DNA of 64,000 nt, taken from the NCBI GenBank assembly GCA_020725315.1, contig DYFG01000001.1, positions 17,015 to 81,014 on the forward strand, in the 5' to 3' direction. The DNA comes from Nitrosotalea sp. GTDB taxonomy: Archaea > Halobacteriota > Syntropharchaeia > Alkanophagales > Methanospirareceae. Position 1 is the first letter of the stretch, and each line of letters begins with the position of its first letter. The position numbers were made by a program, and so were the translations under genes. Shown piece by piece: positions 2,416-59,790 of this stretch. Under the pieces are notes generated by a model that did no database searches, was not told the origin of the DNA, and saw only the letters and a list, made by a program, of their open reading frames with translations.

Positions 2416-2710
2416 GGACATTAAGATTACCAATCAATTTATTCAGGATTGGGAAGCCGCAAGACATGACCCGCAAGTAAAAATCTATGTAGACAGACTG
2501 ATTAATGTTGTTACCAGATATGGAGAGCTACCAAACAGCCTTAATCCTCACAAGGCGTTTAAATCATTACCCTATATCATAGGTTATGTGTCGGTTAATA
2601 AGGTGGGCTGGCGCATGACCTTCTTGATAGAAGATGGTGTAATGATTTTTGATCGCCTGTTACGACACGATGAAATGGACATTTATCTACGGGAGATGGG
2701 AAAGATATGA
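2378..2710 (+). CDS. RelE/ParE-fold (Gp49-like) protein, putative
   Basis: The C-terminal GWRMTFLIEDGVMIFDRLLRHDEMDIY resembles the conserved RelE/ParE/Gp49 C-terminus (..R..Y....vI.vl.i.HR.d.Y). Its stop overlaps the MTase start (ATGA). Confidence 0.3.
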   Translation: MTPTTNSTDRKIRDIKITNQFIQDWEAARHDPQVKIYVDRLINVVTRYGELPNSLNPHKAFKSLPYIIGYVSVNKVGWRMTFLIEDGVMIFDRLLRHDEMDIYLREMGKI

Positions 2711-22518: not shown

Positions 22519-24579
22519 CTATACTCCATATAAAGCGTGTGTCGTGTCCAACATCTCTAGCAGTTCTTTGGCAGACAAAAACCTGCTAGGTTTGTCGCTG
22601 GTATACGAAAACGGCGCACTCTCGTTCCTAAATGAAGACGTGGGTGGGTGGATAAGATAGAAATTACCCTTATCTTCTGTATAAAAGGATTCCGCCTCGC
22701 TAACCATTCCTTCATGGATTTTTTCGCCAGGACGCAAACCTATATCCACTATTGCTAAATCTTGTGCGAACTCCTTAGCAAAATCAATCATTAAAATACT
22801 AGGAGCCTTTGGAACCAATATAACTCCCGGCTCGGTTTGTAGGGACATAAGGACTTGATTAATGGCTTCATCTATTGACAGAAAGAAACGAGTCATACGA
22901 CGATCTGTGATTGTAATCGGTCCACCAACCTTAGCCTGATGTTCCCACAAAACTGCCACAGACTGATTAGAAGCCAGCACGTTACCATAACGAGTAATAT
23001 GGAAACTGGTAGCTCCATACTTATTAGCATCTTGAAACACATACTCTACCATCTTCTTGCCAACACCATAGGCGTTTTCAGGCGAACAATTATGTACTAC
23101 CACACTACCCGACACAAAAGTATGCGTATCTTCTACGTCAATACAATATACATCTCTTGATGGAGCTTTATATTCATTAAGAATGGGAGTATCTATATAA
23201 CGTTCTGCTGTTCCTAAATCCCAAAAAGTAGGATCGTAATCTATATAGTCAATTTTATTAGACATTTCAGGCAATATTCCTGGTCTAATAAAATTGAATA
23301 GAGATTGAGTACCCTCAACAGTAAATCTAAGTTCAGGATAATATTTTCCGGCTACTTTAACTAATAAATAATTACACTCAAATCCCCTGTTTGTTAAAAA
23401 CTCACATAACCAAATAACTTCTTCCTCAGTAAACCCATGAGTAGCTAGACGCGCAGATGGTCTAGAGTTCCCCCCGTTATTATGACTAATACATCCATCA
23501 TCCATAAACCAAGCTGCCATAAGATAGGGAGAAAAATATTTTTCTAGTAAATGCTTGGGAACTATTTTCGCTTTATCCGAATAAAATGCCTCTCTTAGGT
23601 TTCCTAGTGTTGCATAGGCTCTGGAAGAGGATTTACAGAAATTATTTTTTCCCTTTTTACTTCTCGTTTTAATTTCGCTAAAAGTAAACCCCCGCAGGGC
23701 TGCTGTTTTCGTTTCTAGCCACTGTCGTTGTCTCTCCGAATGACCAATAGTCAGCCGACTGCGGCGACTTTGTGTTAGGCTGCTATCGCCTAATAAAGTA
23801 CCTACAAGTAGTCCATACTGTTTAAAGTTTGGTTCTGGTTCATTAGTTATTATAAAATGATTGTCTGTTAAACTACCGGCAGGAATCCATCCTTTGGTTG
23901 TCAGAATAAGATGATCTTCTGTAACTATAGTACCAGACAACTTACCCACATGCAGATATGCTCTACGGTAAGTAAGTCTATATCTTTTCCTGCCATCCAA
24001 TTTATTTTTGTACCACCCCACCACTCGCCCTAACTTCTGTTCCCCCGTATTAGGATCAATAGTAACTACTTCGCCATCATAACGTTCTTTAACCAACTCG
24101 CCTATTGGCTTAGAGGTTCCGTCTGCCAACAAAACCCTAGCGTGCCAATCAAGACAGGCTTTGTCGGTGCTTGTCGTAACGACCTGAGACACTCCCATAT
24201 CAATTGCGGCCTCAACAACCTGCTGAGAACCGTAGATATTTGTTTCTATCGTAGCAGCAATGTTGTTTTGAGCAGAGGGTACCTGTTTATAGGCAGCAAA
24301 GTGCATTACTATGTCAACACCGCGCATGGCCCGTTTGAGATCATTATAACGAGTTATGTCTCCCAACACATATTGGTGTTCAGGAAACTTTTGACGAAGG
24401 ATGCTTTGCTTTGTTTCGTCACGCGAAAAAATTACAAACTCTGCTCCCCAAGAATTTCGTCGGGCGCGAGTAAGCACAGCCTTTCCGAGAGTACCCGTTC
24501 CGCCAGTAATTAGTATTTTTTTACCTTCCAACATCTTCCCGTAAGGATCAGAATTTGTTATCCAGGTTTCCATCATCAT
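22519..24579 (-). CDS. NAD-dependent NDP-sugar 4,6-dehydratase/epimerase (CapD/PseB-like) interrupted by an intein
   Basis: Rossmann motif ILITGGTGTLGKAV. Catalytic region STDKA then intein then CSPENAYGVGKK, corresponding to STDKAxNPxNxYGxTK. 686 aa in total, of which 356 aa is intein. Confidence 0.75.
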   Translation of the reverse strand: MMMETWITNSDPYGKMLEGKKILITGGTGTLGKAVLTRARRNSWGAEFVIFSRDETKQSILRQKFPEHQYVLGDITRYNDLKRAMRGVDIVMHFAAYKQVPSAQNNIAATIETNIYGSQQVVEAAIDMGVSQVVTTSTDKACLDWHARVLLADGTSKPIGELVKERYDGEVVTIDPNTGEQKLGRVVGWYKNKLDGRKRYRLTYRRAYLHVGKLSGTIVTEDHLILTTKGWIPAGSLTDNHFIITNEPEPNFKQYGLLVGTLLGDSSLTQSRRSRLTIGHSERQRQWLETKTAALRGFTFSEIKTRSKKGKNNFCKSSSRAYATLGNLREAFYSDKAKIVPKHLLEKYFSPYLMAAWFMDDGCISHNNGGNSRPSARLATHGFTEEEVIWLCEFLTNRGFECNYLLVKVAGKYYPELRFTVEGTQSLFNFIRPGILPEMSNKIDYIDYDPTFWDLGTAERYIDTPILNEYKAPSRDVYCIDVEDTHTFVSGSVVVHNCSPENAYGVGKKMVEYVFQDANKYGATSFHITRYGNVLASNQSVAVLWEHQAKVGGPITITDRRMTRFFLSIDEAINQVLMSLQTEPGVILVPKAPSILMIDFAKEFAQDLAIVDIGLRPGEKIHEGMVSEAESFYTEDKGNFYLIHPPTSSFRNESAPFSYTSDKPSRFLSAKELLEMLDTTHALYGV
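23089..24156 (-). mobile_element. intein with LAGLIDADG homing endonuclease inside the dehydratase gene
   Basis: Starts CLDWHARVLLADG (block A) and ends VVVHN followed by +1 Cys. LAGLIDADG-type motifs LLVGTLLGDSSL and LMAAWFMDDGCIS. Confidence 0.6.
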
Positions 24580-34445: not shown

Positions 34446-35178
34446 GAACTTCTACCTTACTAAATGTATATGGGCTTTCTGCTTCATGATCTAAACAAAC
34501 AACACAATTTTCCGCCGAAGGATTTACGTTCCAATAAACGTAATAATTATCCTCATCTTCATCTACTTCCAACCAGCATTTGCACAACGATTTTCCAAGA
34601 CAGTCGTCACCTGGGAGATAAGGCATCATAAAAGTAATATCGACAGGAATAGTGCCCGCTATAAACGGTGCTCTGGCATACCCATACAGAGAAGAACGCC
34701 ACTGTAGACGACCACTATAAATTACTCCGCTAGACAACGCCTCACGAATGTCTGCCTCAAATCCATCGAAGTATTCATATTCCCTCTCTAAACGCTGTTC
34801 TAAGATTTCCCTGTGCCGTTCAGTAAATTCCTCTCCTTGCAAACCCAACAGCATAAGATCAGAAAAATGGATACGCAGACGATCTCTAAACCGCTCCGAA
34901 AATTCCCTTATTGATAAGGCTCCCGACAAAACAGCGACCAGCAATTCCTGAAATTCTTGGGATGCCTCTTCACAAAGTTCTTCGTATTCCTGTTCGTCCC
35001 GCTCATCATACTGCTTCTTTCCTTTACCAGCAGCATGTATGCACGCGAAAATAGCCTCTTCTTCAGACCCGCCATCTCTCAAAACCGCATTAGCGGCTCT
35101 GATACAACGTTTCTTTTCTGAGACTGTCCAATTCTTAGCAACTTTTGGCACGTAATTGGGATAACGATAGGGACTCAT
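34429..35178 (-). CDS. hypothetical head morphogenesis protein with C-terminal Cys cluster
   Basis: 249 aa, directly after portal. C-terminal CxxC...C..C (CLGKSLCKCW ... CVVC). Confidence 0.3.
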   Translation of the reverse strand: MSPYRYPNYVPKVAKNWTVSEKKRCIRAANAVLRDGGSEEEAIFACIHAAGKGKKQYDERDEQEYEELCEEASQEFQELLVAVLSGALSIREFSERFRDRLRIHFSDLMLLGLQGEEFTERHREILEQRLEREYEYFDGFEADIREALSSGVIYSGRLQWRSSLYGYARAPFIAGTIPVDITFMMPYLPGDDCLGKSLCKCWLEVDEDEDNYYVYWNVNPSAENCVVCLDHEAESPYTFSKVEVHGLTT

Positions 35179-37736
35179 TTCGTAACCAACTCACTTACTA
35201 TCCTACGCGCTTCTTGTATGTCTTTAGCAGTTATTTTTTTGTAGCCCTTCCTCTCAGTATGAGAATCAATGCCACCAACAATCTGATCTGTTCCAAAGGT
35301 AATTTCACTCGGCTGCTCCGTAGGCTGCGAAGATAAACGAGATTCGATCTCAGGTATCATCCATTCTGGTATATCACCTGACTCAACCGCCAACTGCCTT
35401 GCAGCAATCGCATCAATCTCTCCACTACGAACTAACAAAGCACGTTCTTTAGCTCTAATAAATCTCGCCTCTGCCCGTTCCCTGTCAGACCGAATATCCT
35501 GTTCCTTAAACTCAAACCGAACATTATAAGGAAGATGAGAATTTATCTTATCTTCCAACATCGTCATAATCAGGGCAGGGCCTTTACCCCTCGTCTTGAG
35601 ATGGAGAATTTCAGACTGTCCAGATGATCCAAGATTACCGGACATGAGTGGGGCAAACTCTTGATAATCCACACCAAAAGCAAGCGCCAACTGTGCTATA
35701 TACCATTTAAAGGTTGTGTCTTCGTTAAACGAATCTGGTAATGTTGCCAGATCAATGTGAACGTGACTGAGTGGGTGAGTAGGATCAACCCCAGGAATAA
35801 TCACTGGTTGCGAAAAACGATATAAACCACGATTAAGGTTTTGTTCTTCTGCCAGCAACACCGCATCATCAATGTTTGATTTTGATACGCCACCGATAAT
35901 ATCAATGGCGCGAGTAAAGTTGCCGCCTACCTTTTCTTTCTTATAGATGGAAATGTCTCTAAGAATTTGGGCGGCGAGTAGGGCACGGGATGTAGCACAA
36001 TATTGCATGCCATACATTTCTTCGATGGGAGAAGGAAACTCTTCTAACGTTTCTACTCTCCACCAGGGCATTGCATGCTCTCTACCATAAAAGTCTCTAT
36101 AAATAACTGGATATTCTGGATCACCAGTTCGCCAACAACGTCCTGAGTCCAGGTGTGCAAAATTAATCACAGGAGAAGTAGGGTTATTATTATCAACCCT
36201 AATAATTTCCCAAAAGGCGCCATTATCCTGTGTGTTGTGAGAAACAAGATTTCCAGCAATAAAATTGCGAGTTTTGTCTACTCCAATATGATAGGTGGTT
36301 TCTACAACCTTCCCGGTTGCTCCTATATAGTCTTTCTGTTCTATTTTTTCAATTTCATCAAAGTAGATTTTTGCAGGTTCCAACTCCCACACAGAAGGAT
36401 TAAATGGTTTTGTGTGTTGTCCCATCTTATACTGCATAGACGGAATTATATATTCGCTGATATAGGACACCACTGCACGATAACCATCGGCAGTGAAACG
36501 AATCCTATAATACTTGTCCTTTATCGGTTGCACCTTACAAGAAAAACCACGCGAGGTAAGTTCCTCAGCAAGCCATTCAACATCTTCTTTTTCAAATCCA
36601 TCTGTGCATAAAACAGCGTGTTCTGATTGATTGTTTGCTGTGGTAAGTGTTCTCTGGCACGCCCCGTCATCCATAAACCATATTGCAAGCATACGGGGAG
36701 AGAAGTATTTCACAAAGTCTTCCCTATTAACTCGCTTCTTCCCGTCTGGATACCATCTATCAAACCAAGGAGATAGCCCCAAAGAAGCTAGCGAGTTTAC
36801 TCCTATGATGTGTGCTCCTTTTTCTGTGAGCCTAGAATTTTGCCCTGTCCAACCAAACTCTTTTAACAAAGACTTCTTAAATTCTAGATAATCAGACTGA
36901 TCAACAGAGTGTCTAAAGCGGATAATTGCTCTCTTGGTAAAACGAGACATACTCATATCCCCAAGCAACCCGCCCACAAGTACCTCTGCCTGTTCTTCTG
37001 AAGGAACAAGATCAGAAGTACCTATCTTATCAGTAGGTAGCAAGTCTTTAGCTTGTACCCAACCACGATCAGTTAGCATGGGATGATCTTCAGTTAAAAA
37101 GATTCCTCCTTGCTTTCCTCCATGACCATGATTAGTTGCTAGTTTAGTAGACAGGAAATACCATTTACGATTCCCTAGTGGCGTAGAATGCCATTCAGTA
37201 ACCATCTGTTCTACCAAAGTTCCGTCAGAACCAACGCTAATCACAGGACCAGGATCACGATCCTTTACCATTCTTGCTATCGTCTTTGTTTTTCCTAGTC
37301 GATCCCCCCCTAGCTTAACTTTAGTATTACCAGCCAAGCAATAGAGGTCAATACAAGTTTTAAGAATTAAATCGTACCACCCCTTACCACGATTTGATCG
37401 CTGGATAATCTCAGTAACCTTGTTAATTGTATTTTTAGGTCGCGGTTTAGTCTTGTCTGTGCCTTCAATATGCCACGCAAAACTGGCGTTACGAATTGAA
37501 ACACCATAAACCGCGCTTGCCAAAAGGGACTCTGTGTGCCAAAATTCCCGTAATTCCCTATCTCGTTTAACAGGATCTTTGCCCCAGGGCGTAATTGAAT
37601 CGGCAGTTGTCGCCAGTTGTAAAATCAAGGGGCCAACACGCGGCGTCCTGTTATTAGGCGGCGTCTCAACAACAGAGTTTTCAAAAAGCTCTGGTAACAA
37701 TTCTTTTTCTTCTACAAAATCACTACCGACTGCCAT
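35175..37736 (-). CDS. portal protein interrupted by an intein
   Basis: 853-aa gene immediately downstream of, and overlapping, the large terminase gene. The roughly 484-aa extein is portal-sized. The intein is at residues 133-501. Confidence 0.6.
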   Translation of the reverse strand: MAVGSDFVEEKELLPELFENSVVETPPNNRTPRVGPLILQLATTADSITPWGKDPVKRDRELREFWHTESLLASAVYGVSIRNASFAWHIEGTDKTKPRPKNTINKVTEIIQRSNRGKGWYDLILKTCIDLYCLAGNTKVKLGGDRLGKTKTIARMVKDRDPGPVISVGSDGTLVEQMVTEWHSTPLGNRKWYFLSTKLATNHGHGGKQGGIFLTEDHPMLTDRGWVQAKDLLPTDKIGTSDLVPSEEQAEVLVGGLLGDMSMSRFTKRAIIRFRHSVDQSDYLEFKKSLLKEFGWTGQNSRLTEKGAHIIGVNSLASLGLSPWFDRWYPDGKKRVNREDFVKYFSPRMLAIWFMDDGACQRTLTTANNQSEHAVLCTDGFEKEDVEWLAEELTSRGFSCKVQPIKDKYYRIRFTADGYRAVVSYISEYIIPSMQYKMGQHTKPFNPSVWELEPAKIYFDEIEKIEQKDYIGATGKVVETTYHIGVDKTRNFIAGNLVSHNTQDNGAFWEIIRVDNNNPTSPVINFAHLDSGRCWRTGDPEYPVIYRDFYGREHAMPWWRVETLEEFPSPIEEMYGMQYCATSRALLAAQILRDISIYKKEKVGGNFTRAIDIIGGVSKSNIDDAVLLAEEQNLNRGLYRFSQPVIIPGVDPTHPLSHVHIDLATLPDSFNEDTTFKWYIAQLALAFGVDYQEFAPLMSGNLGSSGQSEILHLKTRGKGPALIMTMLEDKINSHLPYNVRFEFKEQDIRSDRERAEARFIRAKERALLVRSGEIDAIAARQLAVESGDIPEWMIPEIESRLSSQPTEQPSEITFGTDQIVGGIDSHTERKGYKKITAKDIQEARRIVSELVTK
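36234..37340 (-). mobile_element. intein with LAGLIDADG homing endonuclease in the portal gene
   Basis: Block A CLAGNTKVKL. Ends NLVSHN with +1 Thr. Motifs LVGGLLGDMSMS and MLAIWFMDDGACQ. Confidence 0.55.
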
Positions 37737-43448: not shown

Positions 43449-44780
43449 GGTGACTGCTCCCCACGGCTAAAGCCGGGGGCTTCTAGGACCGGAGTCCAGG
43501 CTCGCCAGCCCGCGAGCCAAAATGTTCAGAGATGCATTGAGATCGCGGTCCAGTTTCAGGCCGCAGTAAGGACAGTCGTGGACACGCACACTCAAGTCTT
43601 TCGGAACCACCGCGCCGCAGCCGGAGCATTCTTGCGTTGTGCCTCTGGGGTTAACGCGCAGCACAGCACGACCGGCACTTTCAGCCTTGTACGTGGTGAA
43701 CTGCACGAACTGGCCCCAGGCCACGTCCGCGATATTCCGGTTGACAACCCGGTTTCCGTTGGACTGCATGTCCGCGATGTCCAACTTCTCAAAGACGATC
43801 AGGCCGAAGCGGTTGACGAGCTTGCGGCTCTCCTGGTGCGCGAAGTCGGCGCGCCGGTTGGTGGCGCGCTGGTAGGCATGGTTGAGCGCGCGCAGCACCT
43901 TGCGGCGCTCCGGCGAGCCTTTAGCGAACTGTTCTTTCTTGCGCTGCAAGCGGGCGATGTCCGCCGCATCGCGTTTCATCCAGCACTGGCGCGGGATACT
44001 GTCGCCGGTACTCAGCATGGCGAACGTCTTCAGGCCGAGATCCACGCCCACCACTTCAGGCGACGGGGGCAGAGGCGCGGCGTCTACTTCGCACGAAAAG
44101 CAGGCGTACCAGTTGCCTACGCTATCGCGCCGGATGATGACTGTTTTGGGTGTGCCTTCCAGGGGGCGATGCAGCTTGATTTTCACGGCTCCGATTTTCG
44201 AGAGCGTGAGCCGGTTACCGTCCAACTTCACCCCATTACCACACTGCGGATAGGTGAAACTGTCGTACCAGCCACGTCCCTTGAAGCGCGGGTAGCCGGG
44301 CTTCTCACCTGCCTTGACGCGGCGAAAGAATGCCTGGAACGCCAGATCGACGCGTGTGCACGCTTCTTGAAGCGACTGCGAAAAGGCGTTATTGAGAAAT
44401 GGCTGCTCGGCTTTCCAGCCGGGGATCAGCTTAATCGTATCGAAGCGCGTCAGCGTTTCGCGGTTAATGTCCCAGGCATCGCGGCGCACTTCAAGCGTCG
44501 TGTTGTAAACCCACCGACAAGCATCCAATGCGCGCAGCAAGGCGGTGCGTTGGGCAGAAGTAGGAAAGAGGCGGTACTTGTAGGTCAATCGCATAGCCCG
44601 ATTATACCATTTATGCTACAGGTTCACAAACATATGGCGCACCTTATATCCCCCTGCCTTCAGGCAGAGGTTTTACGGCGCTTTTCCGATAAAGCTGAGT
44701 TCTCCCCAGGAGCATCATCACAACACGCCCAACAGGAAGCCCCACACACCGGACACTCTTCTACCACATCACAACTCAAC
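43440..44780 (-). mobile_element. IS200/IS605-family insertion carrying only tnpB (IS1341-like), GC-rich
   Basis: GC is about 60% or more against a roughly 45% backbone. Right-end hairpin near 43455-43480 (GGCTAAAGCCGGGGGCTTC). Left-end-side hairpin CCTGCCTTCAGGCAGAGG near 44655. Confidence 0.65.
43467..44594 (-). CDS. tnpB: TnpB (OrfB_IS605) RNA-guided endonuclease-family transposase accessory protein
   Basis: N-terminus MRLTYKYRLFPTSAQRTALLRALDACRWVYN. C-terminal zinc finger CSGCGAVVPKD...CPYCGLKLDRDLNASLNI. Confidence 0.9.
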   Translation of the reverse strand: MRLTYKYRLFPTSAQRTALLRALDACRWVYNTTLEVRRDAWDINRETLTRFDTIKLIPGWKAEQPFLNNAFSQSLQEACTRVDLAFQAFFRRVKAGEKPGYPRFKGRGWYDSFTYPQCGNGVKLDGNRLTLSKIGAVKIKLHRPLEGTPKTVIIRRDSVGNWYACFSCEVDAAPLPPSPEVVGVDLGLKTFAMLSTGDSIPRQCWMKRDAADIARLQRKKEQFAKGSPERRKVLRALNHAYQRATNRRADFAHQESRKLVNRFGLIVFEKLDIADMQSNGNRVVNRNIADVAWGQFVQFTTYKAESAGRAVLRVNPRGTTQECSGCGAVVPKDLSVRVHDCPYCGLKLDRDLNASLNILARGLASLDSGPRSPRL

Positions 44781-46930: not shown

Positions 46931-47386
46931 ATGAAACGACACTGGATGTATTTTAAGTATGTTCTGAAACATAAGTGGTTTGTGTTTTTGGCAGGCAGGA
47001 AACTGAACGTTCCTTTGTGGTGCTTGTTGTTACATGATTGGGATAAGTTTACTCCTGGTATGTGGATACCTTATGCCAGAACTTTTCGCAAACCCAATGG
47101 AGAAGGACAATACGAACCTTCAGAGGAGTTTTATGCTGCGTGGAATGGGCATGAAAAGCGGAACAAACATCATTGGCAGTATTGGGTTTTGCTAAAAGAT
47201 TCAGGGGAACTAGTGCCTCTTCCTATACCTGATAAGCACAGACGAGAGATGCTTGCTGATTGGATTGGGGCAGGCATGGCACTTGGAAAACCAGACACAA
47301 AACAGTGGTATCTTGATAATCACAGCAAAATGCACATTCACAAAGATACTAGGATGTGGATAGAAAAGCAACTTTCAATTATTTGA
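46931..47386 (+). CDS. hypothetical protein (His/Trp-rich, LLLHDWDKF motif)
   Basis: Start taken at the ATG after GAGGAG-A9. 151 aa. Function unknown. Confidence 0.4.
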   Translation: MKRHWMYFKYVLKHKWFVFLAGRKLNVPLWCLLLHDWDKFTPGMWIPYARTFRKPNGEGQYEPSEEFYAAWNGHEKRNKHHWQYWVLLKDSGELVPLPIPDKHRREMLADWIGAGMALGKPDTKQWYLDNHSKMHIHKDTRMWIEKQLSII

Positions 47387-47459
47387 GTAGATTATTATAA
47401 GGCATTGTACAATGGAGAAATACCACAGCCAACTATGACAAAAAGACTACTATAAACTT

Positions 47460-47840
47460 ATGGCAGAAGCGAATGGTTGGCCTATAGAGGAGGAAAAGAT
47501 GGAAGAAGAACGTCTTACTTCTAAAGAAATTATCGATCTATCTAAATTGGTAGGCAAGGAACTAGGAAGCCGTTTTTCTGGTACTCTAGAGTATGTTTTT
47601 CAGAACGATAAAATCAATATACGGGCAAGTGGTGGACTAGGGCCTTTTAGTCGCGTCCACATTGAATACTTGTATCGGGGAGAGTGGACTCCTGTATTTG
47701 ATTATGAAGGACCGCTTATGCAGGTTACACGCTTTCGTTATGGTAAATGGGTAGATATTCTTGAAGAGTTAGGCGACAAAGCAGAACGCCGCATTGAGGA
47801 ACGCGAGAACGAGTTCTTTGGAGATTTGGATGAAGACTAA
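47460..47840 (+). CDS. hypothetical protein
   Basis: 126-aa ORF. Confidence 0.35.
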   Translation: MAEANGWPIEEEKMEEERLTSKEIIDLSKLVGKELGSRFSGTLEYVFQNDKINIRASGGLGPFSRVHIEYLYRGEWTPVFDYEGPLMQVTRFRYGKWVDILEELGDKAERRIEERENEFFGDLDED

Positions 47841-47964
47841 TTATGAGAATAAAAATTTTTTTAATTAAATTGTTATGGAAAATTTCTTGTTCGATTGAAA
47901 AGAAATGCTGGCATTGGGTTGTGGATCATGGGCTGGTATTAGAGTTGTTGGGTAAGGAGAAGGA

Positions 47965-48195
47965 ATGAGCGATAAAACTGTTGCAGTATCAGACGTTTTC
48001 AATCCCGATGCGATTCTATTTGCAGCAGAAAAGGGAAGCTCAGATTGCCAACGGCTTGATGAGAATTGCGAATATCTTGGAACTTTTGATGGGTGTCGTT
48101 ATTATAAAAACTCGCCAGCCAAAAGTAAGATTCCTGATCGATGGGAAATCTTTTCTAAGTGGAAAGAGAGTATTTTAAAGAACAAAGATGGCTAA
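47965..48195 (+). CDS. hypothetical protein
   Basis: 76-aa ORF. Confidence 0.25.
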   Translation: MSDKTVAVSDVFNPDAILFAAEKGSSDCQRLDENCEYLGTFDGCRYYKNSPAKSKIPDRWEIFSKWKESILKNKDG

Positions 48196-48409
48196 TCAAG
48201 CAGGAGAACGAAGTTCTAGTACTTGGGTGTTTGTTTGTAGTGCGCCAGATGCTTATGCCGCGTTGTGGGAATTTATGGATGATAAAATTAAACGAGAACT
48301 AATCTCAAACGGCCCTATTCCCTGTGAAGGAACCTTGAAAACAGGACCGCATTGTATGGATTGCAGGTTTGGTACGGGAGAGTTGATCGATGAAGACTTT
48401 TTTGATTAG
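48188..48409 (+). CDS. hypothetical Cys-containing protein
   Basis: 73-aa ORF. Confidence 0.25.
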   Translation: MANQAGERSSSTWVFVCSAPDAYAALWEFMDDKIKRELISNGPIPCEGTLKTGPHCMDCRFGTGELIDEDFFD

Positions 48410-48512
48410 CTGGATTAAAAAGCGGATTCCTCTGTGGTTAGCCCTTTGGGGATATGAAAAAGTAAATCAAGAGGGATACTGGTACATCAAAGAGCAACAG
48501 CTAAGGAAACAG

Positions 48513-48866
48513 CTATAACCAGCATTTAGGTAGAAATATGAGTAAGGGCTTTCCGGCTTTGGCTGAGAGGCAGATCGTATGGTAGGTTCCTTTGGACTCA
48601 CCGTCCCAAAAGGCCACTATACGATCTGCCTCATTCACTATGTCATTATTCCGTCTCATTCCTGCTGAACGCCCATACTTCTTCCAATCAGCAGGGAAAA
48701 TCTTAGTTTCTAGTCCTCGCATCTTTGCTAGTTGTTCTGCCGCCCGATCTACCCCTATAGCTCCGCCGCTGATAACTACGGTTTCTTCATCCAAAGTGTC
48801 AATGAAGTTTTTAATTTTTAGTAAGTCTTTCCAATTTCTTGACCCTACTATTGCAATTTTATCCAT
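48513..48866 (-). CDS. SLOG-superfamily protein (DUF2493/DprA-like Rossmann)
   Basis: IAIVGSRNW ... VVISGGAIGVDRAAEQLA ... RIVAFWDGESKGT. Confidence 0.45.
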   Translation of the reverse strand: MDKIAIVGSRNWKDLLKIKNFIDTLDEETVVISGGAIGVDRAAEQLAKMRGLETKIFPADWKKYGRSAGMRRNNDIVNEADRIVAFWDGESKGTYHTICLSAKAGKPLLIFLPKCWL

Positions 48867-49077
48867 TGTCGATCAAACTAATGAGATAATAAGTAGAGGA
48901 CGCTATCACAATAATCATTCCTAATACAGCTAGAAGATACGGAAAGAACACAATAGAGGCTGCTATTACAACAGGCACAACTACAAACCACGTAGATATT
49001 GCCCCTAGCAGCTTAACCTTATCAAACTCCCACGCATCAGCAATCCAATCTAAAAGCCGTTCTATTTTATCTAGCAT
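48859..49077 (-). CDS. small membrane protein
   Basis: 72 aa with two hydrophobic helices. Confidence 0.25.
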   Translation of the reverse strand: MLDKIERLLDWIADAWEFDKVKLLGAISTWFVVVPVVIAASIVFFPYLLAVLGMIIVIASSTYYLISLIDNG

Positions 49078-49123
49078 GTTAAATGTACTCCGTCTCTAAC
49101 ATATACCAGAACGCCACCAATCG

Positions 49124-49516
49124 TCACTCGATTTTCGCGTCAATGCCCCAGGCCTGCGCAATTTGCAGCAAGATTTCTGCTGCTGTGTCCCTGTGGCAGA
49201 ACTTGCCCCGGCTGCAATAGCACGCCAGCGTCACGACGCCTTTGCCTTGCAGCCAATTACGTAACTCAGGCGCGTACTGCTTCCAGCGCGCCCGCAATAA
49301 TTGTTTGTATGCTGCGACGTACTGTTCGTCGTCAATCGCCGCGTACTTCAGCGTCCACGACGGCGGTTGCTCGCCAGCCCTCTCCGCCGCCCAGCGCTTG
49401 TGCCCCCCGACGATTTCCCAGCTGGGCGCAAAGAAGCGCCCAATGCCTGTGCTCGATTTTACGGTCGTGTCAATTACTTCGGGTTCGCCAATTCTCCCTG
49501 TGCGTATAATTAGCAT
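49124..49516 (-). CDS. DUF488-like protein (GC-rich patch)
   Basis: C-terminal VTLACYCSRGKFCHRDTAAEILLQIA resembles the DUF488 consensus (valmCaE....CHR.lia..L). GC is about 58% by eye. Confidence 0.35.
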   Translation of the reverse strand: MLIIRTGRIGEPEVIDTTVKSSTGIGRFFAPSWEIVGGHKRWAAERAGEQPPSWTLKYAAIDDEQYVAAYKQLLRARWKQYAPELRNWLQGKGVVTLACYCSRGKFCHRDTAAEILLQIAQAWGIDAKIE

Positions 49517-49988
49517 GCGCCTGCTCCTTTCGTAACCCGCGATGACACCGAGCGCGTTGCGGTGTAAAAAGAGAGTAGAAAAGCAAGCACTAGATTACGC
49601 ATATCAATAAGGAATTGTAGTCCTACATAAACCAAAGTAATAGCCATATATCCCCCATAAATAAGAAGAAATCAGAAACTATTCGAAAGATTAATCAGCA
49701 TATCCCAACTTAATTAACAAAAAAGCAAGGGCATATATAATCCCAAAAGCAGTCAAAAGCTCTAGCATAATGAGAGGAAAGCAAATAAACAAAACAATAA
49801 GACACAGAATACCGCCCACAAAGCAAGATACAAGAAGGGCCGAAAGAAAGTCGTTGTCTAACATCACACTCTCCTTTCTTACAAGTATACATTACAAGAG
49901 AAATAAAGTCAATAGACGATACAAGAGGGCCTACTAAGAAAAAGATAAGGGGTACATAAAAGAAAAGAGAGGAACGATATGGGTGGAT

Positions 49989-50018
49989 TAGTTAAGTTTA
50001 AGAGAAAAAAAAATAATT
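49989..50018. repeat. direct repeat copy A (TTAGTTAAGTTTAAGAGAAAAA..TAATTT) downstream of the 218-aa gene
   Basis: Near-identical to copy B at 50766-50794. Confidence 0.5.
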
Positions 50019-50674
50019 TAATGTACTTTACGTAATTTAACATATTTATGTTTGTAAAATTTTCCTACGGGGGTGAATCCTAAATCAAGCATGTTTTGAT
50101 GTGTGAGATTTACCTTACCCCGTTTACGGGTTTGGGAGATTCCATTTTTAGTATAAATCCATGTGGGTGTGGTTTTTCCTACGTAAGTCCAGCCTGAGCT
50201 TTTATAAACTTCTCCGGTATGTCCTTGCCATGTGTCCGCATACGTAACAAGACATTTCCACCTTGTATCTAACATTTTTATAGATTTACTCAGCATAAAG
50301 GACGCAGAGTTTTTAGGGGCAGAAGGAATCAAAACCATTCGTGAAAGAGAGAGAACACGATTAGGTTCTTCATAAGTAGCCTCTGCCGCACGCCGAGTAG
50401 GGGGCAACCACCAAGTTACTCCAAACAAAACATCAAACTCTTTATGAAACAATCCAAAACAAGCAACACACAGTTTACTAACACTTCTGGTATAGTGATG
50501 TTGAACTATAAGAGTTCTTCCTAATGAGGGATCAATAGGACGTACTTCCCAGGACTCTTTATGTAAGGGGCCTACAGGCAACATATTTTTCTCCTTTAAA
50601 ATTTCCAAGTAAATTTCTGAATATTTGGACTTTCTAGGTTCTGGTATATCTTCCTTGTTAATAATGGTAATCAT
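50018..50674 (-). CDS. hypothetical protein (QHHYTRS ... TYADTWQGHTGEVYKSSGW)
   Basis: 218-aa ORF flanked by about 30-bp direct repeats. Function unknown. Confidence 0.4.
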   Translation of the reverse strand: MITIINKEDIPEPRKSKYSEIYLEILKEKNMLPVGPLHKESWEVRPIDPSLGRTLIVQHHYTRSVSKLCVACFGLFHKEFDVLFGVTWWLPPTRRAAEATYEEPNRVLSLSRMVLIPSAPKNSASFMLSKSIKMLDTRWKCLVTYADTWQGHTGEVYKSSGWTYVGKTTPTWIYTKNGISQTRKRGKVNLTHQNMLDLGFTPVGKFYKHKYVKLRKVH

Positions 50675-50765
50675 TGTTTTTTTTTTCTACAGAAACGATA
50701 TTTATCAATATAGCACAGTACAATAAGAATGTCAATAATCAGGCGGTTTAAGTATGACTGAGGGT

Positions 50766-50794
50766 TAGTTAAGTTTAAGAGAAAAATAATTTCA
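50766..50794. repeat. direct repeat copy B (TTAGTTAAGTTTAAGAGAAAAATAATTT) upstream of the 218-aa gene
   Basis: Pairs with copy A at 49989-50018. Confidence 0.5.
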
Positions 50795-51017
50795 AAAAAA
50801 TTTTTTGTATAAAAATTGTCCAGCGCGCACATCACCGCCGCGAAACCGAACGCGGCTGGCGGGTTCGTTAGCTATTAGCACTAAGACTACAGTTACCATA
50901 ATATGCCGTGTTCAGTTTAGAGTTAACTAAGAGTACAGACACCGTTATACTACCTCTTAAAAACCTATCCACACGTTCCCTAGAATCATAATTTTAGGAA
51001 GTGCTAACCGGGAGATG

Positions 51018-51270
51018 GAATTTAGGAACACCTAAAATAAAAATTAGGCAGACCAAAATAAAAATTAGGCAGACCTAAAATAAAACTTAGGATAATCTTA
51101 TAACTAATTTTGGTCTGATCCAATCAGAAGCTTTCGGCGCGCCGAATTGTCGCAAGTCTGTTTAATGCTCTATTTTCTTATTTTCTGCCATATTCCCTAA
51201 CTTGATTTTTAGGTTTGCCTAATCCTCTTATTGGCTATTCCCTCATTTGATTCTTAGGTTTGCCTAATCT
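51018..51270. repeat. iteron-like array around a palindrome. About three direct copies of AAAATAAAAATTAGGCAGACC at 51033-51097; a 14-bp perfect palindrome TTCGGCGCGCCGAA at 51133-51146; two inverted copies TTTTTAGGTTTGCCTAAT at 51205-51268
   Basis: Seen directly. The arrangement looks like a replication origin, partition site or multi-operator region. Confidence 0.55.
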
Positions 51271-51510
51271 TTAATACCTTATTATATTGCCAGTCTTTGG
51301 ATAGTTCACATGTGAACAGTATACATATACTCTATATCTCTATAAGGTTTAATTGGTTTAGATATAAACGATCTTATCGCGCTTTGGCGTTACAATCTGG
51401 CTATTATCACGAGTCTTTATTTTCGAGAATAGGTTACGCTTTAACGCGGATAAAATCCTATTATCGATCCTGTGTTTTAACATTCGCAATTTTTGGGAAT
51501 GGAGCAAATT

Positions 51511-51587
51511 AGAATGTTAAAAAAGTTTGAATCTGCTAACCTTTGAGGGAAAAACGAATGTTAAAATGGTTTGAATCTGGTTAGAAT
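51511..51587. repeat. two copies of an about 30-nt repeat, GAATGTTAAAA(A/T)GTTTGAATCTG(C/G)TTA, spaced 44 bp
   Basis: AGAATGTTAAAAAAGTTTGAATCTGCTAAC and CGAATGTTAAAATGGTTTGAATCTGGTTAG. Confidence 0.5.
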
Positions 51588-51599
51588 ATCTGTAAGATA

Positions 51600-52560
51600 C
51601 TTGAACACCTAGCTAAATCTGTGATAGGATGTAAGCGCAATTGAGCAAGCGCACATTAAAAATAGCGCCGGCGCGAAAGTCTGGGGCGATGCAGGAAGCG
51701 CCAAGAGATGAGCTTACCCTCAGGCGAGTAGCAATGACGCAATACGCATACGCAACCTTCGGGGGGCTTTCGTCTAGCCAACGAAAGCTGAGCCGTACGG
51801 GGGCTGTAGGAAACTAGTAGACTCGTCCAACCTGAGATCGCACGAGTCTAGAGTAAATCCTAATGGTTGGGGGCCGGGCGGCCCCTCGCTACTAACTGGA
51901 TCCCATTAGCCTTACTCTACTAGCCAAGTGAGCAGATAGCCATATCTGTTATGTCACGCTTGGCTAGCCTAGTTTCCGGCGGCGCAAGCGATTAGAGACC
52001 TCTCTAATACGCACGCGCACCTATAGCACGGCAAACCAAGCGCTGAAAACCTGTTAGGTCGATGAAAGCATACTACACTAGCCAATAGCAGAAGTCTAGA
52101 CAAACAGCCTAGAATCGGCGGGATCGAAAGTAGCCTAATCAATGGCTAGCCTAGCCGATAGTGCATACTGGTGAAAGCGATGACAATGCTAGCTAGTGCA
52201 AGTGCCTAAACGCTGACAGTGATTAATCTAAGTGCGATGCTAAGCCTGGCTATAGTTGTTTTGCTTGTTTTCCCCAACACTCCTCGCAGATAAACCGTAC
52301 CGCACGATATTAGATGATCAATTGCTTAACTCCCGGCGGCTAGGTTATAGGCTATCCTATACCCCAGTCTAAGGGACCAAGTTAGGCATGAGAGACTCTA
52401 TTATCTGGTATAGTCGACTCTGTTAGGTTATGCTAGGCCAAAGCTTAGCTGATCCGCTATAGTGGGATAGCACACTAGGATTAGTTAGGCTAGGCTAGTA
52501 TCTCCCATATCTTATAGTGCCGATAAAATAGGTTATCGGCACTTAGGCTATAGGAGACCA
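51600..52560. other. ORF-free, hairpin-dense, CTAG-rich noncoding region (candidate large structured ncRNA or cis-acting DNA element)
   Basis: No ORF of 60 aa or more in any frame across 51513-52547. 19 CTAG tetramers counted in 51601-52500. Many perfect short hairpins, for example GTGCCGATAA-AATAGG-TTATCGGCAC near 52517-52544 and CTAGACTCGT..ACGAGTCTAG near 51817-51850. Confidence 0.3.
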
Positions 52561-52584
52561 TAACCATACAAAGGAGAAAGGGCG

Positions 52585-52824
52585 ATGAAGCTACAGAAGG
52601 TACAGAAGCTACTGACGGGCGAGTACCGGGAATTGTACGGGGGGCATGGTGTGTGGTGGGTATCCGTGAGGTGGGAAGAGGGGCGGCTCATCAGTGAGTG
52701 GTGGGCAGACGGATTACCGGCGGTGAGCAGACCGGTGACTAAGGCTGAGGGCGCGGATGATGTGGAGAGGATAATTCGGTCGGTGTGCGCAGACTTCCGC
52801 AAGGTGCGGGGTCTGGCTTGGTAG
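52585..52824 (+). CDS. hypothetical Trp-rich protein (GC-rich)
   Basis: 79 aa, RBS AAGGAGAAAGGG, GC about 58%. Confidence 0.35.
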   Translation: MKLQKVQKLLTGEYRELYGGHGVWWVSVRWEEGRLISEWWADGLPAVSRPVTKAEGADDVERIIRSVCADFRKVRGLAW

Positions 52825-52849
52825 ATAGATTAGCATACAGGAGATCAAA

Positions 52850-53107
52850 ATGGCACACTATTTGGTCGGTACGAATACCCGCGGGTATTTGCCCGTGGGC
52901 GATCCCATCGAATGCGAGACATTGATCGAAGCTAAGCAAGCAGCACGACAGGAAGCCCTTTACTTGGCTGAAGAGACCAATAATAAGATCGAAGTTTGGT
53001 CATCTCTCAACAGTATCACCAAGCGCGATCTTGTGAACTATGGTGTACCGATTACTTACGCGGTAATCGGAGACATCGAAGTTTGGATCGCCATTGAGTC
53101 GGATTAG
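52850..53107 (+). CDS. hypothetical protein
   Basis: 85-aa ORF followed by a hairpin. Confidence 0.35.
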   Translation: MAHYLVGTNTRGYLPVGDPIECETLIEAKQAARQEALYLAEETNNKIEVWSSLNSITKRDLVNYGVPITYAVIGDIEVWIAIESD

Positions 53108-53115
53108 GGCAGTTA

Positions 53116-53141
53116 AGGCGTACAAGCGATCTTGTACGCCT
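53116..53141 (+). terminator. hairpin AGGCGTACAAG-CGAT-CTTGTACGCCT, putative terminator or attenuator
   Basis: 11-bp perfect stem. The 3' tail is only moderately T-rich. Confidence 0.4.
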
Positions 53142-53185
53142 TATAGTGTTCTAATCCCATAAGGGATCAAATAGGAGACTATGCT

Positions 53186-53515
53186 ATGAAACTCACGAAT
53201 GAAGTAGCGGTATACGTCCCATCTACGCTTGGCGAGTCTAACGCCGATCCGGCGCTGATCTCACGTATCGTTGATCAGGCATTGACCGATCTTAGTGTCG
53301 TCAATGGCGGCGCTACTGTGACTAATGGGATCGGCGCATGGCTATCTCATGACGGTAAGCTCGTAAAGGAGTCTGTGACTATCGTTTCCAGTAATTGCGA
53401 GACGATCACATTACAGACTCTTAGAACACTCGCAAAATTGCGAAAGACTATACGCGAATCGATGAAACAAGAAGCCGTTACTGTAAGGGTTAACGGTGTT
53501 CTCTATATCCGATGA
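53186..53515 (+). CDS. hypothetical protein
   Basis: 109-aa ORF with RBS TAGGAGA. Confidence 0.35.
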   Translation: MKLTNEVAVYVPSTLGESNADPALISRIVDQALTDLSVVNGGATVTNGIGAWLSHDGKLVKESVTIVSSNCETITLQTLRTLAKLRKTIRESMKQEAVTVRVNGVLYIR

Positions 53516-53591
53516 GACTAGCTAGTAGCCATAATGGGAATTATGGCTACAATGGTAGCCTTATCAATCATAGCCAATAGGAGAATCTACA

Positions 53592-57117: not shown

Positions 57118-57268
57118 GGAGAAAATAACGTGCCTAACCATCAAGCGAAAGACGATCCCGACAATCTCTTCCCGATCCTATGTATTTATGACTGGTATGA
57201 CTAATCATACCTACCTCTGCACATTGGAAATGGTGTGCAGTATTGGGATGAAAGTAAAGGAGTGTACC

Positions 57269-58192
57269 ATGCCTAAGAAAAATTCGGTTGAACGGCGTAT
57301 CCTAGACACACTGATTAAAGCAGTCGAGTCTAGCGGATTGCTGCCCTGGCAACGTCCGTGGGTTGTTGCCCATCCTATCAATCTTGTGACATACAATGCT
57401 CACAAGTCCGAAGGCACACCGGAAGAAGTGTGTATTAAATACGGTTATAAGGGTATTAATCCCCTGCTCCTGTCACTGTCTGAATTTTCCAGCCCCTTTT
57501 GGTTTACCTACAAACAGGCTACCGATTTGGGGTGGCAAATCCGCAAAGGTGAGAAGTCTTCTTTCATCGTTTACTGGAACATTTTTGAGAAGACTGTCAC
57601 CGATGATGACGGGGATGATCGTATCGTTAAAATCCCGTTCCTTCGGTATTATAACCTGTTTAACGTAGAGCAGGCCGATCCTGCTGAGGGTAAAGAACCT
57701 GCCCCTATTCCTACGATTACAGATATTGATAAGACAGACCGCAAGCGTGATGATATTAAAGAACTACTTACAGCGTCATGGCTTGCGCCTACTACCTTTA
57801 AGGGTACACAAGCAGCGTACATCCCATCACAAGATCGGATCGTGATGCCCCCAGTGGATGCTTTTAAATCCTATGCTCATTTTTATTCGACGTGGGCGCA
57901 TGAGGCAGTGCATAGTACCGGACACATCGACCGACTAGGGCGAGAGGGTGTTGTTAATCCTTCATTGTTTGGTAGTGAGAAATATGGGTTTGAAGAGTTG
58001 ATCGCGTGTGTTGGTCAAGCGATGTTCTGTGCACGAGTCGGTGTGCAGAATGAGGACATGAATAAAAACGACGCAGCGTATCTCAAAAACTGGTTGCAAG
58101 TATTGAAAGATGATCCCCGCATGATCGTAAGGGCTGGATCACAAGCGCAACGTGCAATTGATTTTATCTTCGGTGACGACTCTCCCCGCTAA
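57269..58192 (+). CDS. ardC: ArdC-like antirestriction protein (ssDNA-binding N-domain plus zincin-like metalloprotease motif)
   Basis: C-terminal STWAHEAVHSTGH, matching the HExxH...TGH signature of ArdC/DUF1738. Start at the ATG after AAGGAG. 307 aa. Confidence 0.7.
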   Translation: MPKKNSVERRILDTLIKAVESSGLLPWQRPWVVAHPINLVTYNAHKSEGTPEEVCIKYGYKGINPLLLSLSEFSSPFWFTYKQATDLGWQIRKGEKSSFIVYWNIFEKTVTDDDGDDRIVKIPFLRYYNLFNVEQADPAEGKEPAPIPTITDIDKTDRKRDDIKELLTASWLAPTTFKGTQAAYIPSQDRIVMPPVDAFKSYAHFYSTWAHEAVHSTGHIDRLGREGVVNPSLFGSEKYGFEELIACVGQAMFCARVGVQNEDMNKNDAAYLKNWLQVLKDDPRMIVRAGSQAQRAIDFIFGDDSPR

Positions 58193-59790
58193 AGCTAAAG
58201 CGGGGAGCTTCCCAGGGCACGCTCGCCGCAACCGGCCACGTTACGCTCTGGCGGCCCCGTCCGGGCCGGGTTGACCGCAAGCATCAGGATATTCCGAGGT
58301 TACACTGCCCATCACCGCGATCCATCCGTTGCAACAGCATCGCCGTTCTGAGCTTCGCGGGACACGTTTGACCCACTGGCCTGCGTTTCGTCCCGCGCGC
58401 CCGGTACAGGCGCTTTCAACCCTAAGCGAAGGATGTTCTTCGCTGCGTTCACGTCGGCGTTTTCTTCATGCCCGCACGAAAGACACCGGAACCGCGCTTG
58501 TGTTTTACGATTTTCGGCGTCCACTACGCCGCACTCGGAGCACGTTTGACTCGTGTACGCTGGCGGCACCTTGACCAACTGGACGCCGCGCTCGGCACAC
58601 TTGTATTCGAGCAGTTGCCAGAAGGTCGCAAAGCCGGCATCGTGCGCGCTCATGGCGAGACGCTTGTTTTCGATCATGAAGTCCAGCGTCAGATCTTCGA
58701 TGGCGATCAGCCCGTAGGTGCTCGTGAGCCAGTCGGTGACGGTGTGCCAGAAATACCACCGCTGTTGTCTGATTCGGTCCTCCAGCTTGCGCAACTGGCG
58801 CTCGGTTTCCTGCATGCGCGTGGACTTGTGCCAGATGAACACGCCGGGTTTGGGCGTGCCGTCCGCATTGTAGTTCTGCGGGTTGTTGGCGCGGCGCTGG
58901 CGGTCCAGCTTGCGCATAAGCACGCGGCGCTTCTGCTGCCCTTCCCGATACCAGCGCGGGTTATCAATGGTCGTGCCGTCGCTGAGCGCCAGCAGGTAGA
59001 CCATGCCCACGTCAATGCCAACGGCGGGCTTCTGTGAAGGTTCCGGCTCGGCGTCGGGTATTTCAAGCTGGAGGGCGGCGTACCACTGGCCGCGCCGGTT
59101 GCGCAGCACGAGCACGTACTTGATGACGCTCAGGGGCGGCAGATCGCGGTGAAAGCGCAGACGGATGTCACCACAGTTGGCGATGCGCAGCTTAGCCCAC
59201 CCGTCCGACGTTTCGATGAGTTTGCACCCACTACCGTACTTGTAACCCAGGCTGCGGAAGTGGTAGCGCCCCTTGAAGCGCGGGAAGCCCGGTGTTTCGC
59301 CCGCCTTGACGCGGCGGAAGAACGCTTTATAGGCTTTGTCCAGGCGGCGCATAAGGTCATCTACCGTGTCATAGGGCAGCAGCCCGAACGTGTCCGGTTC
59401 CTCTTTGCGCAGTGCGCACCAGTGATCACGCAGGTCATACAGGCTGATGCTCTCGCCGCGTTCCTCATACGCTTCCTTGCGCATGGCGAGGGCACCGTTG
59501 TAGATTTTGCGCCCCTGCCACAGCAGGAAGTCGAACGTCCGCGCTTGCGCCCTCGTCGGATACAGCCGGTACTTGTACGTCCGAATCATCGCCGCCCCAG
59601 AACAGAACACCCCGCCGAAGATTGTGTGTTGTCTAGGCACACGCGCGCGGCAGGGTGTTCCGTCCACAATCATAACGCACGTATCATGCCTAGACAACAT
59701 TAGTATACCGCACATTCGTTCGCAAAGCAAAATCAGAAAGGAGGCAAGCGCCATTCCCAACCGGGCTAAAACCCGGTGTCCCCTGGCGCA
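58193..59790 (-). mobile_element. second IS200/IS605-family tnpB-only insertion, GC-rich, abutting the ardC stop
   Basis: Right-end hairpin CTCCCCGC-TAAAGCTAAA-GCGGGGAG spans the ardC stop (58180-58210). Left-end-side 11-bp inverted repeat TTGTCTAGGCA..TGCCTAGACAA at 59626-59697, and hairpin CCGGGCTAAAACCCGG at 59759-59775. GC is over 60%. Confidence 0.6.
58312..59589 (-). CDS. tnpB: TnpB (OrfB_IS605) RNA-guided endonuclease family (start at internal Met, MIRTYKYRLYPT)
   Basis: N-terminus MIRTYKYRLYPTRAQARTF. C-terminal zinc finger CSECGVVDAENR...CLSCGHEENADVNAAKNI. Listed ORF is 58312..59760. Confidence 0.85.
   Translation of the reverse strand: MIRTYKYRLYPTRAQARTFDFLLWQGRKIYNGALAMRKEAYEERGESISLYDLRDHWCALRKEEPDTFGLLPYDTVDDLMRRLDKAYKAFFRRVKAGETPGFPRFKGRYHFRSLGYKYGSGCKLIETSDGWAKLRIANCGDIRLRFHRDLPPLSVIKYVLVLRNRRGQWYAALQLEIPDAEPEPSQKPAVGIDVGMVYLLALSDGTTIDNPRWYREGQQKRRVLMRKLDRQRRANNPQNYNADGTPKPGVFIWHKSTRMQETERQLRKLEDRIRQQRWYFWHTVTDWLTSTYGLIAIEDLTLDFMIENKRLAMSAHDAGFATFWQLLEYKCAERGVQLVKVPPAYTSQTCSECGVVDAENRKTQARFRCLSCGHEENADVNAAKNILRLGLKAPVPGARDETQASGSNVSREAQNGDAVATDGSR

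Follow-up and report, generated by a model that had tools for sequence, protein, structure and literature searches.

The window analysed here, a stretch of DNA of 64,000 nucleotides, is part of an uncultivated tailed phage of siphovirus-like type. At the locus under study, a leftward gene set begins after a 1.7-kb non-coding region that contains iterons. It starts with a gene of the Mom family, which is followed in order by genes for a 58-aa membrane protein, a 45-aa ORF, a DUF488-N3a protein, a 72-aa protein and a SLOG/YspA protein. One copy of a short direct repeat, termed element E below, lies on either side of the Mom gene, and the means by which such a repeat-flanked gene may be acquired or lost are the focus of this analysis.

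The wider gene content of the window includes a tape-measure-like protein, a Sipho_Gp37-like protein, glycosyltransferases, a DNA polymerase and two intein-containing genes. A DNA methyltransferase (2707-3396), a tyrosine integrase (3447-4397), a RusA-like resolvase (4330-4809) and an ArdC-type anti-restriction protein with a metallopeptidase domain (57188-58192) are encoded as well, and since a tyrosine integrase is among them, the phage may be temperate or plasmid-like. The inteins carry LAGLIDADG endonuclease domains and interrupt the genes at 22519-24579 and 35175-37736. One of these host genes encodes a Polysacc_synt_2/epimerase-type sugar-nucleotide enzyme, which is unusual for inteins, and at a position matching the second intein gene, the related contig L138 encodes a product of 853 aa in which this LAGLIDADG domain (PF03161) recurs. 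Elements of the IS605/TnpB type are located at 43467-44594 and 58312-59760, and G+C-rich islands at 26-30 kb, 43-45 kb and 58-60 kb; the IS605/TnpB islands have 52-59% G+C, compared with about 43% for the phage. The TnpB at 43467-44594 shares at most 82% amino acid identity with copies in Caldilineales, Anaerolineae and Chloroflexia MAGs. Sequence similarity suggests, without being proof, that the host belongs to the Chloroflexota.

No close cultured relative of the phage is available, since a megablast search of positions 49000-52000 against the INPHARED phages gave no match and a tblastn search with the DNA polymerase retrieved only phage proteins of about 25% identity. In IMG/VR, the exact 22-mer of element E had 0 matches, the DUF488 protein had no match, and the Mom protein had one 40% relative without synteny. 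Four IMG/VR matches to a degenerate E pattern were discarded as chance matches, which showed no similarity to the window. When metagenomes were scanned with a degenerate E pattern, only L040 was related among the at least 120 matches listed, almost all of which were due to chance. A 21-mer search of the GTDB genomes gave 0 matches, and hence no prophage copy is present among the species representatives.

The Mom gene and its promoter

The original prediction described a 218-aa gene whose protein had no recognisable motif. As to the motif it was wrong, since the protein is assigned to the Mom family by Pfam, by PHROG and by PDB entry 8bv8, and on this sequence basis is a member of that family. 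Over residues 42-181 of the 218-aa ORF, the Pfam model PF25680 'Mom' scores 99 bits (E 3.7e-28), its gathering cut-off being 27.1. The PHROG family phrog_1384, 'Mom-like DNA modification protein', matches with E 3.6e-31, and the sole PDB match is chain A of 8bv8, the 'Methylcarbamoylase mom' of phage Mu (E 5.4e-6). PF25680 is likewise present in the database homologues, 43 of 43. The curated NCBIfam models gave no match to the Mom protein at E <= 1, and PHROG matches to homing or HNH endonucleases (E ~1e-3) were set aside as partial.

The Mom protein of phage Mu is an adenine N6-methylcarbamoylase, which shields phage DNA from restriction. The window protein is about 25-30% identical to it, and in the 8bv8 alignment, on which residue equivalences were counted (the chain numbering is Mu +1), residues H48, Y49, R101, D139 and Y149 of Mu Mom are identical in the window protein. 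The serine of a nearby NS motif is also conserved, its equivalence to S114 of Mu Mom being uncertain. According to mutagenesis of Mu Mom, H48, Y49, R101, S114, D139 and Y149 are needed for acetyl-CoA binding, iron binding and activity (PMC7261163). Judged by its family, the window protein presumably serves to modify phage DNA and thereby to evade host restriction.

With regard to the extent of the gene, an open frame of 218 aa does exist (50018-50674, minus strand), but the gene itself most likely encodes 188 aa and starts with the ATG at 50584 (50018-50584, minus strand). This start is favoured because it agrees with homologue lengths and with the gene calls on identical contigs (188 aa, start at 50584), because it lies behind AAGGAG (50591-50596), and because the 30-codon extension is missing from L002. 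The 43 homologues range in length over about 141-230 aa and align with 56-89% of the query, mostly with 80-89%. The homologue in L002, which is 97% identical, has 188 aa; unrelated sequence takes the place of the first 30 codons, and TAAAGGAGAAAAATATG is common to both loci. The 30 in-frame codons upstream of the probable start (50585-50674) have no ribosome-binding site, and they could represent a short leader peptide or merely an open frame. Mu mom needs translational activation, and in light of this a leader upstream of Mom might matter.

A sigma-70-like promoter, TTGACA-17-TATATT (50707-50735, minus strand), with 11 of 12 matches to the consensus hexamers and a TG before the second hexamer, is located between the upstream copy of E and Mom, inside the 777-bp unit that is delimited by the repeats. 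After Mom, no terminator was found in the window by a promoter/terminator scan and RNA folding.

Element E and the invariant block

The direct repeat that had been noted around the gene is real. An exact 22-mer, TTAGTTAAGTTTAAGAGAAAAA, occurs on the plus strand at 49988-50009 and 50765-50786, and with up to 3 mismatches tolerated these two known copies are the only matches in the 64-kb window, whereas 100 dinucleotide-preserving shuffles yielded 0 matches of this type. The 14-nt core of E, searched in the 64-kb window with up to 2 mismatches, recovers the same two sites only. A repeat search returned 28 nt at 93% identity with a spacing of 777 bp, and once a 4-T indel is permitted, the repeat spans 31-35 bp (49985-50019 versus 50762-50792). 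Read on the gene (minus) strand, the common stretch is AAATTATTTTT(TTTT)CTCTTAAACTTAACTAA(C/T)CC, at 50792-50762 and 50019-49985.

The upstream copy (50762-50792, minus strand) reads AAATTATTTTTCTCTTAAACTTAACTAACCC on the gene strand and constitutes the 3' end of the invariant block described below. The downstream copy (49985-50019, minus strand) reads AAATTATTTTTTTTTCTCTTAAACTTAACTAATCC; it is longer by 4 T, differs at one C/T position and does not contain the TTGAAA half of the upstream copy. Its position directly 3' of the stop codon needs a slight correction, as it overlaps this codon (50018-50020) by 2 nt. The distance of about 90 bp that had been given between the upstream copy and the gene start does not stand, the value being about 178 bp when counted from the ATG at 50584. 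The arrangement is no assembly quirk, because positions 47018-53584 of the window are identical to JGI contig Ga0246235_100118 and 7 contigs are on record with exactly this Mom protein, the other six places being reported with similar neighbour genes.

Close relatives (L002, L003, L008, L040, L134-L143 and L213) were collected through protein look-ups and one pattern scan, and were compared by blastn map, raw sequences and alignment. The last 30 nt of a 65-nt block, GCGCGCTGGAC...CTTAACTAAC (50764-50828, minus strand), are the upstream copy of E. The full block (50828-50764) reads GCGCGCTGGACAATTTTTATACAAAAAATTTTTTTGAAATTATTTTTCTCTTAAACTTAACTAAC. In the overlaps available, the block is identical in the window, L002, L040 and L139, and L135 and L138 each deviate from it at 1 position, whereas identity among the relatives is no more than 78-84% in the control region around it. 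Just upstream of the block lies a G+C-rich hairpin, CCCGCCAGCCGCG..CGCGGCGG (50835-50863, minus strand), which the relatives also have, with a few substitutions. This hairpin adjoins the upstream copy of E only and is outside the repeated part.

The block borders on a 1.7-kb non-coding divergent control region (50830-52580), which is possibly an origin or an operator array. Its iterons (51019-51269) comprise three units of about 22 bp (51019-51091) and two of 34 bp (51191-51269), and further repeats are found at 51512-51579. The iterons are conserved in L138, L040 and L003; they belong to the context of the block and are located outside the repeat. Contigs of two unrelated studies begin at the same base, which corresponds to window position 50817 on the minus strand (L135:1, L136:1, L137:1 and L139:1). 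Among the contigs with this start is SRR33243636_29950, of 62.6 kb. The common start, 24 nt before E and just after the G+C hairpin, reads AATTTTTATAC... and marks a branch point of the assembly graph or else a physical end of the genome.

Concerning the nature of E itself, a consensus scan called no sigma-70 promoter inside either copy, the nearest ones on the same strand being located 27 nt downstream of the upstream copy and 73 nt downstream of the downstream copy. The upstream copy contains TTGAAA-N17-TTAACT, which is sub-consensus. RNA folding revealed no structure in the E copies beyond shuffled controls (z = +0.6 around the downstream copy), and on this ground a reading of the repeat as a terminator or an attC-like site was rejected. 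A repeat search found no dyad symmetry or inverted repeat in E, and Rfam and tRNA scans around the locus returned nothing credible. The window and diverged copies in L003 share an A/T tract with TTGAAA-N17/18-TTAMCTA behind it. Because of this shared pattern and the strong conservation of the block, E likely has a regulatory role and is conserved for reasons of its own. The proposal that the repeats are duplicated promoter or terminator signals is borne out in part: E closes a near-invariant block with which the leftward operon begins and which is probably regulatory, although E itself is no canonical sigma-70 promoter and no terminator.

Related phages and the variable slot

Homology among the relatives ends at the last base of the 65-nt block, a coincidence of boundaries that is partly true by construction, and four unrelated sequences follow it. 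The window continues with CCTCAGTCATAC... into Mom. In L002 and L135-137 the block is followed by ATTTTTCACATTGACAAATCC..., leading to Mom in the former and to a C5 DNA methylase in the latter. L040 continues with AACCTCTTGCAC... and the pair L138 and L139 with CCAYCCATATCG..., in both cases into a gene for a Vut_1 transporter. The cargo of the slot behind the block varies as well, and consists of Mom in the window and L002, Vut_1 with a GNAT-DUF6610 fusion and an N6/N4 methylase in L040 and L138, Vut_1 with DUF6610 in L139, and a C5 methylase in L135.

Genes for Vut_1 (YhhQ-type) and DUF6610 are located at L040:504-2148, L138:7523-9167 and L139:210-1866, in the same slot as positions 49549-50763 of the window. 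DUF6610 corresponds to the DpdA4 subgroup of DNA-guanine transglycosylases (Hutinet et al. 2023, PMC10516641). The combination suggests, from its gene content, a 7-deazaguanine DNA modification with an imported precursor, and the GNAT-DpdA4 fusion may deserve attention itself.

On its right-hand side the variable slot ends at about 49548, at the leader of the DUF488-N3a gene (49124-49516). A promoter-linker, TTGACT-17-TATACT (49884-49912, minus strand), precedes the gene of a small hydrophobic protein of 57/58 aa (49691-49867, minus strand), which is the next cassette downstream of Mom. In the relatives, the latter gene occurs after DpdA4 (L134, L139) or after the C5 methylase (L135). The promoter itself, TTGACTTTATYTCTCTTGT..TATACT (window 49912-49884), is a second recurrent mosaic joint and links, depending on the relative, DpdA4 to the 57-aa gene, DpdA4 to a methylase, or the C5 methylase to the 57-aa gene. 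The 45-aa ORF (49510-49647, minus strand) ends with about 13 codons (SSRVTKG..AC*) that are the same as the final ones of the N6/N4 methylase in L040 and L008, and by this resemblance it looks like the leftover 3' end of such a methylase after a replacement event. The DUF488-N3a gene with its leader of about 45 nt (49124-49563) shares 74-76% nucleotide identity with L007:2674-3112 and L009:970-1410, which are unrelated and much more G+C-rich contexts; it seems to travel as a unit among genomes of very different kinds.

The relatives without Mom (L040, L135-137, L138 and L139) have one copy of E each, and the second copy therefore goes with Mom. In L138 and L139, the single E is bordered on its left by what lies left of the upstream copy in the window, and on its right by what lies right of the downstream copy. 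If one repeat copy and the intervening DNA (777 bp) are removed from the window, 102 of 105 positions match L139, and 99 of 105 match L138. After its downstream copy of E the window reads TCCACCCATATCGTTCCTCTCTTTTCTTTTATGTACCCCTTATCTTTTTCTT, as do L139 and L138 after their single E, and the pyrimidine-rich leader that follows the downstream copy in the window (49936-49986, minus strand) stands directly behind the single E in both relatives. Compared with L138 and L139, the window thus carries exactly one repeat unit, the promoter and Mom in addition. The two copies of E are the joints of an insertion or deletion relative to these two genomes, and the idea of a cassette acquired or excisable by recombination, with related phages having or missing the unit exactly between one repeat copy, is supported by their single-copy hybrid flanks. 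Conserved sites that are independent of the presence of the gene, the outcome that would have spoken against this idea, were not seen, as the Mom-less relatives carry one E only. Because L138 and L139 diverge again 50 nt past E, and no genome identical to the window except for the absence of the unit was found, it can only be inferred whether the unit was gained or lost and which donor was involved.

Other phages with Mom provide further information on the joints. The Mom gene of L002 has 96% nucleotide identity to that of the window and is followed by TAAATTATTTTTCTCTCATAGTTAATTAAA, which is a diverged copy of E (24/30), and then by a good terminator hairpin. The left part of the downstream E of the window (CATTAAATTATTTTT..CTCT) equals the 3' flank of Mom in L002, and the right part (TAAACTTAACTAA + CCACCC...) is the same as the L139 backbone. 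In L003, whose Mom protein is 69% identical, a tandem pair of E-like copies is found upstream, with a spacing of 101 bp that contains no gene, and Mom is flanked by a different pair of direct repeats of 33 nt, which are sigma-70-like promoters. In this phage group, Mom repeatedly sits between duplicated short regulatory sequences. The Mom genes of the unrelated phages L001, L004 and L006 have no flanking repeats. The long contigs L004-L006, which carry a more distant Mom, were set aside because they represent unrelated phages, in which Mom precedes the terminase genes and repeats are missing.

Probable recombination at element E and known systems

In T4-type phages, short regulatory repeats termed PeSLs (promoter-early stem-loops) form the joints of insertions, deletions and replacements in a hyperplastic region and have the potential to loop out the genes between them (Arbiol et al. 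2010, PMC2839356; Comeau et al. 2014, PMC4122927). We consider it probable that the Mom cassette has been gained or lost in a comparable, PeSL-like manner, by unequal recombination at a short regulatory sequence. The leftward operon opens with the near-invariant 65-nt block, directly followed by a hyperplastic slot in which related phages have differing DNA-modification genes, and here the slot starts with the 777-bp unit, made up of the sigma-70-like promoter, Mom and, once more, the final ~30 nt of the block. The unit was probably brought in by an unequal crossover between an E-like sequence after Mom in a donor, as in L002, and the single E of a recipient, as in L139. Such a crossover between the Mom donor and the single-element backbone, placed within AAATTATTTTTCTCT, would produce the two-part downstream copy of the window. 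Conversely, if the two copies crossed over with each other, Mom would be lost again or would leave as a circle with one E. The deletion product would join ...TTTTTTTGAAATTATTTTTCTCTTAAACTTAACTAA to TCCACCCATATCG through a single E, and the circle junction would read the Mom 3' end, one E and then CCTCAGTCATACTT. In these processes, E would be a regulatory sequence that serves as a short homology patch by means of its 22 identical bp. A perfect identity of 22 bp is near the lower limit for homologous recombination, which is a point against this explanation. No single-strand-annealing recombinase was detected among the ~40 window ORFs scanned.

A less likely reading, to which we nevertheless give some weight, regards both copies of E as functional regulatory sites, that is as weak or factor-dependent promoters or as binding sites of a phage regulator, with the link to the insertion or deletion being secondary. 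The copy after Mom would then be kept by selection and give a signal to the next transcription unit. Such a function would fit the block with E being far better conserved than its surroundings, the survival of TTGAAA-N17/18-TTAMCTA behind an A/T tract in L003, including a tandem pair that encloses no gene, and the position of each window copy upstream of a sigma-70-like promoter on the same strand. However, the downstream copy has lost the TTGAAA half and has 4 extra T, its distance to the next promoter differs from that of the upstream copy (73 nt versus 27 nt), the 64 kb hold no other copies, relatives without Mom manage with one, and the consensus scan does not call E a promoter. A regulatory function of both copies is in any case compatible with unequal recombination at E, rather than opposed to it.

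Site-specific recombination is improbable as an explanation. E would then be comparable to an integron attI or a phage att site, at which a recombinase, for example the tyrosine recombinase at 3447-4397, inserts cassettes exactly after ...CTAAC. Four unrelated sequences do begin at one and the same base behind the invariant block, direct repeats delimit the unit as they do in integrated elements, and a tyrosine recombinase is encoded in the window. This enzyme, the only one of its kind in the window, is however 46 kb away and nothing ties it to E, which has neither dyad symmetry nor an attC-like fold. Moreover, each cargo has its own promoter, unlike integron cassettes, the junction in L002 falls inside E, and the other junctions of the slot are found at a promoter, a Shine-Dalgarno sequence and a gene leader instead of at E. 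A more far-reaching variant, which we hold to be equally doubtful, takes the whole 65-nt block ending in E for a dedicated attI-like cassette-acceptor site heading the operon, where a recombinase would insert alternative modules for DNA modification and anti-restriction at one precise position, the second E being the product of insertion. In view of the common contig start 24 nt before E, the block might in addition be located at or beside a physical genome end.

A target-site duplication from transposition, chance or an assembly artefact is effectively refuted as the origin of the repeat: direct repeats do surround a single gene and IS605/TnpB elements do occur elsewhere in the window, but 30 bp is far longer than known target-site duplications, the unit (only promoter and Mom) has no terminal inverted repeats and no transposase, the shuffles exclude chance, and the independent JGI contig with the same sequence and the 7 contigs with the protein speak against an artefact. 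IS200/IS605 elements are not known to make target-site duplications.

On the explanation by unequal recombination at E, the locus would be a natural example of a phage that swaps its anti-restriction equipment at one slot behind a conserved control block. Close relatives appear, from their predicted gene products, to hold four chemically different solutions there, namely adenine modification by Mom, insertion of 7-deazaguanine, C5 methylation and N6/N4 methylation. The most useful by-product of the analysis is this slot as a conserved landmark ahead of differing DNA-modification genes, and the sequences that follow the invariant block in metagenomes could reveal further genes for DNA modification or anti-defence. 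Both the type of gene and the kind of mechanism are already known; what is new is the phage lineage, and no new mechanism is involved.

The window gene can be compared with several known systems, of which Mu mom is the nearest with respect to the protein. Both belong to PF25680, the residues for acetyl-CoA binding, iron binding and activity align, and the window protein is likewise presumed from its sequence to protect phage DNA from restriction. It is only a distant relative (E 5.4e-6), however, and the genetic setting differs, since no com-like gene lies upstream of the window Mom, which heads its operon behind a constitutive-looking sigma-70 promoter, whereas Mu mom ends the late region. 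The 7-deazaguanine genes of the DpdA4/DUF6610 type (PMC10516641) occupy the same slot in L040, L138 and L139 and have the same presumed anti-restriction purpose, but they involve another chemistry and unrelated proteins and are absent from the window. Integron cassettes resemble the present arrangement in that alternative cargo is placed right after a conserved site heading an operon. They differ in that no IntI is found beside the site here, structured sites of the attC type are missing and the cassettes carry promoters.

The morons of lambdoid phages, reportedly described by Juhala and colleagues in 2000, are said to be accessory genes with their own promoter and terminator that are present in some relatives and precisely absent from others. 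The window unit is similar in being a single accessory gene with its own promoter that is precisely absent from some relatives. It comprises only promoter and Mom and lacks a terminator of its own, while a good one follows Mom in L002, and morons, unlike this unit, are not usually flanked by direct repeats.

The closest parallel in terms of behaviour is provided by the PeSLs. Like them, E is a short conserved and probably regulatory sequence in a hyperplastic region of non-essential genes, the joints of insertions, deletions and replacements between close relatives coincide with it, and by analogy the gene between two copies could loop out as a mini-circle. In contrast, a PeSL consists of a strong sigma-70 promoter and a terminator stem-loop, whereas E has no canonical promoter and no stem-loop; PeSLs are present in many copies per genome, and E in two in 64 kb; and PeSLs belong to T4-type genomes, in contrast to the siphovirus-like genome studied here. 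The other recurrent junction, TTGACTTTATYTCTCTTGT..TATACT, comes closer to a PeSL than E does, and the repeats flanking Mom in L003 are, unlike E, promoters. E works like a PeSL but fails the structural definition, and is not classed as one. The locus would nonetheless extend modular shuffling in the style of PeSLs from the T4-type phages to an unrelated, uncultivated phage.
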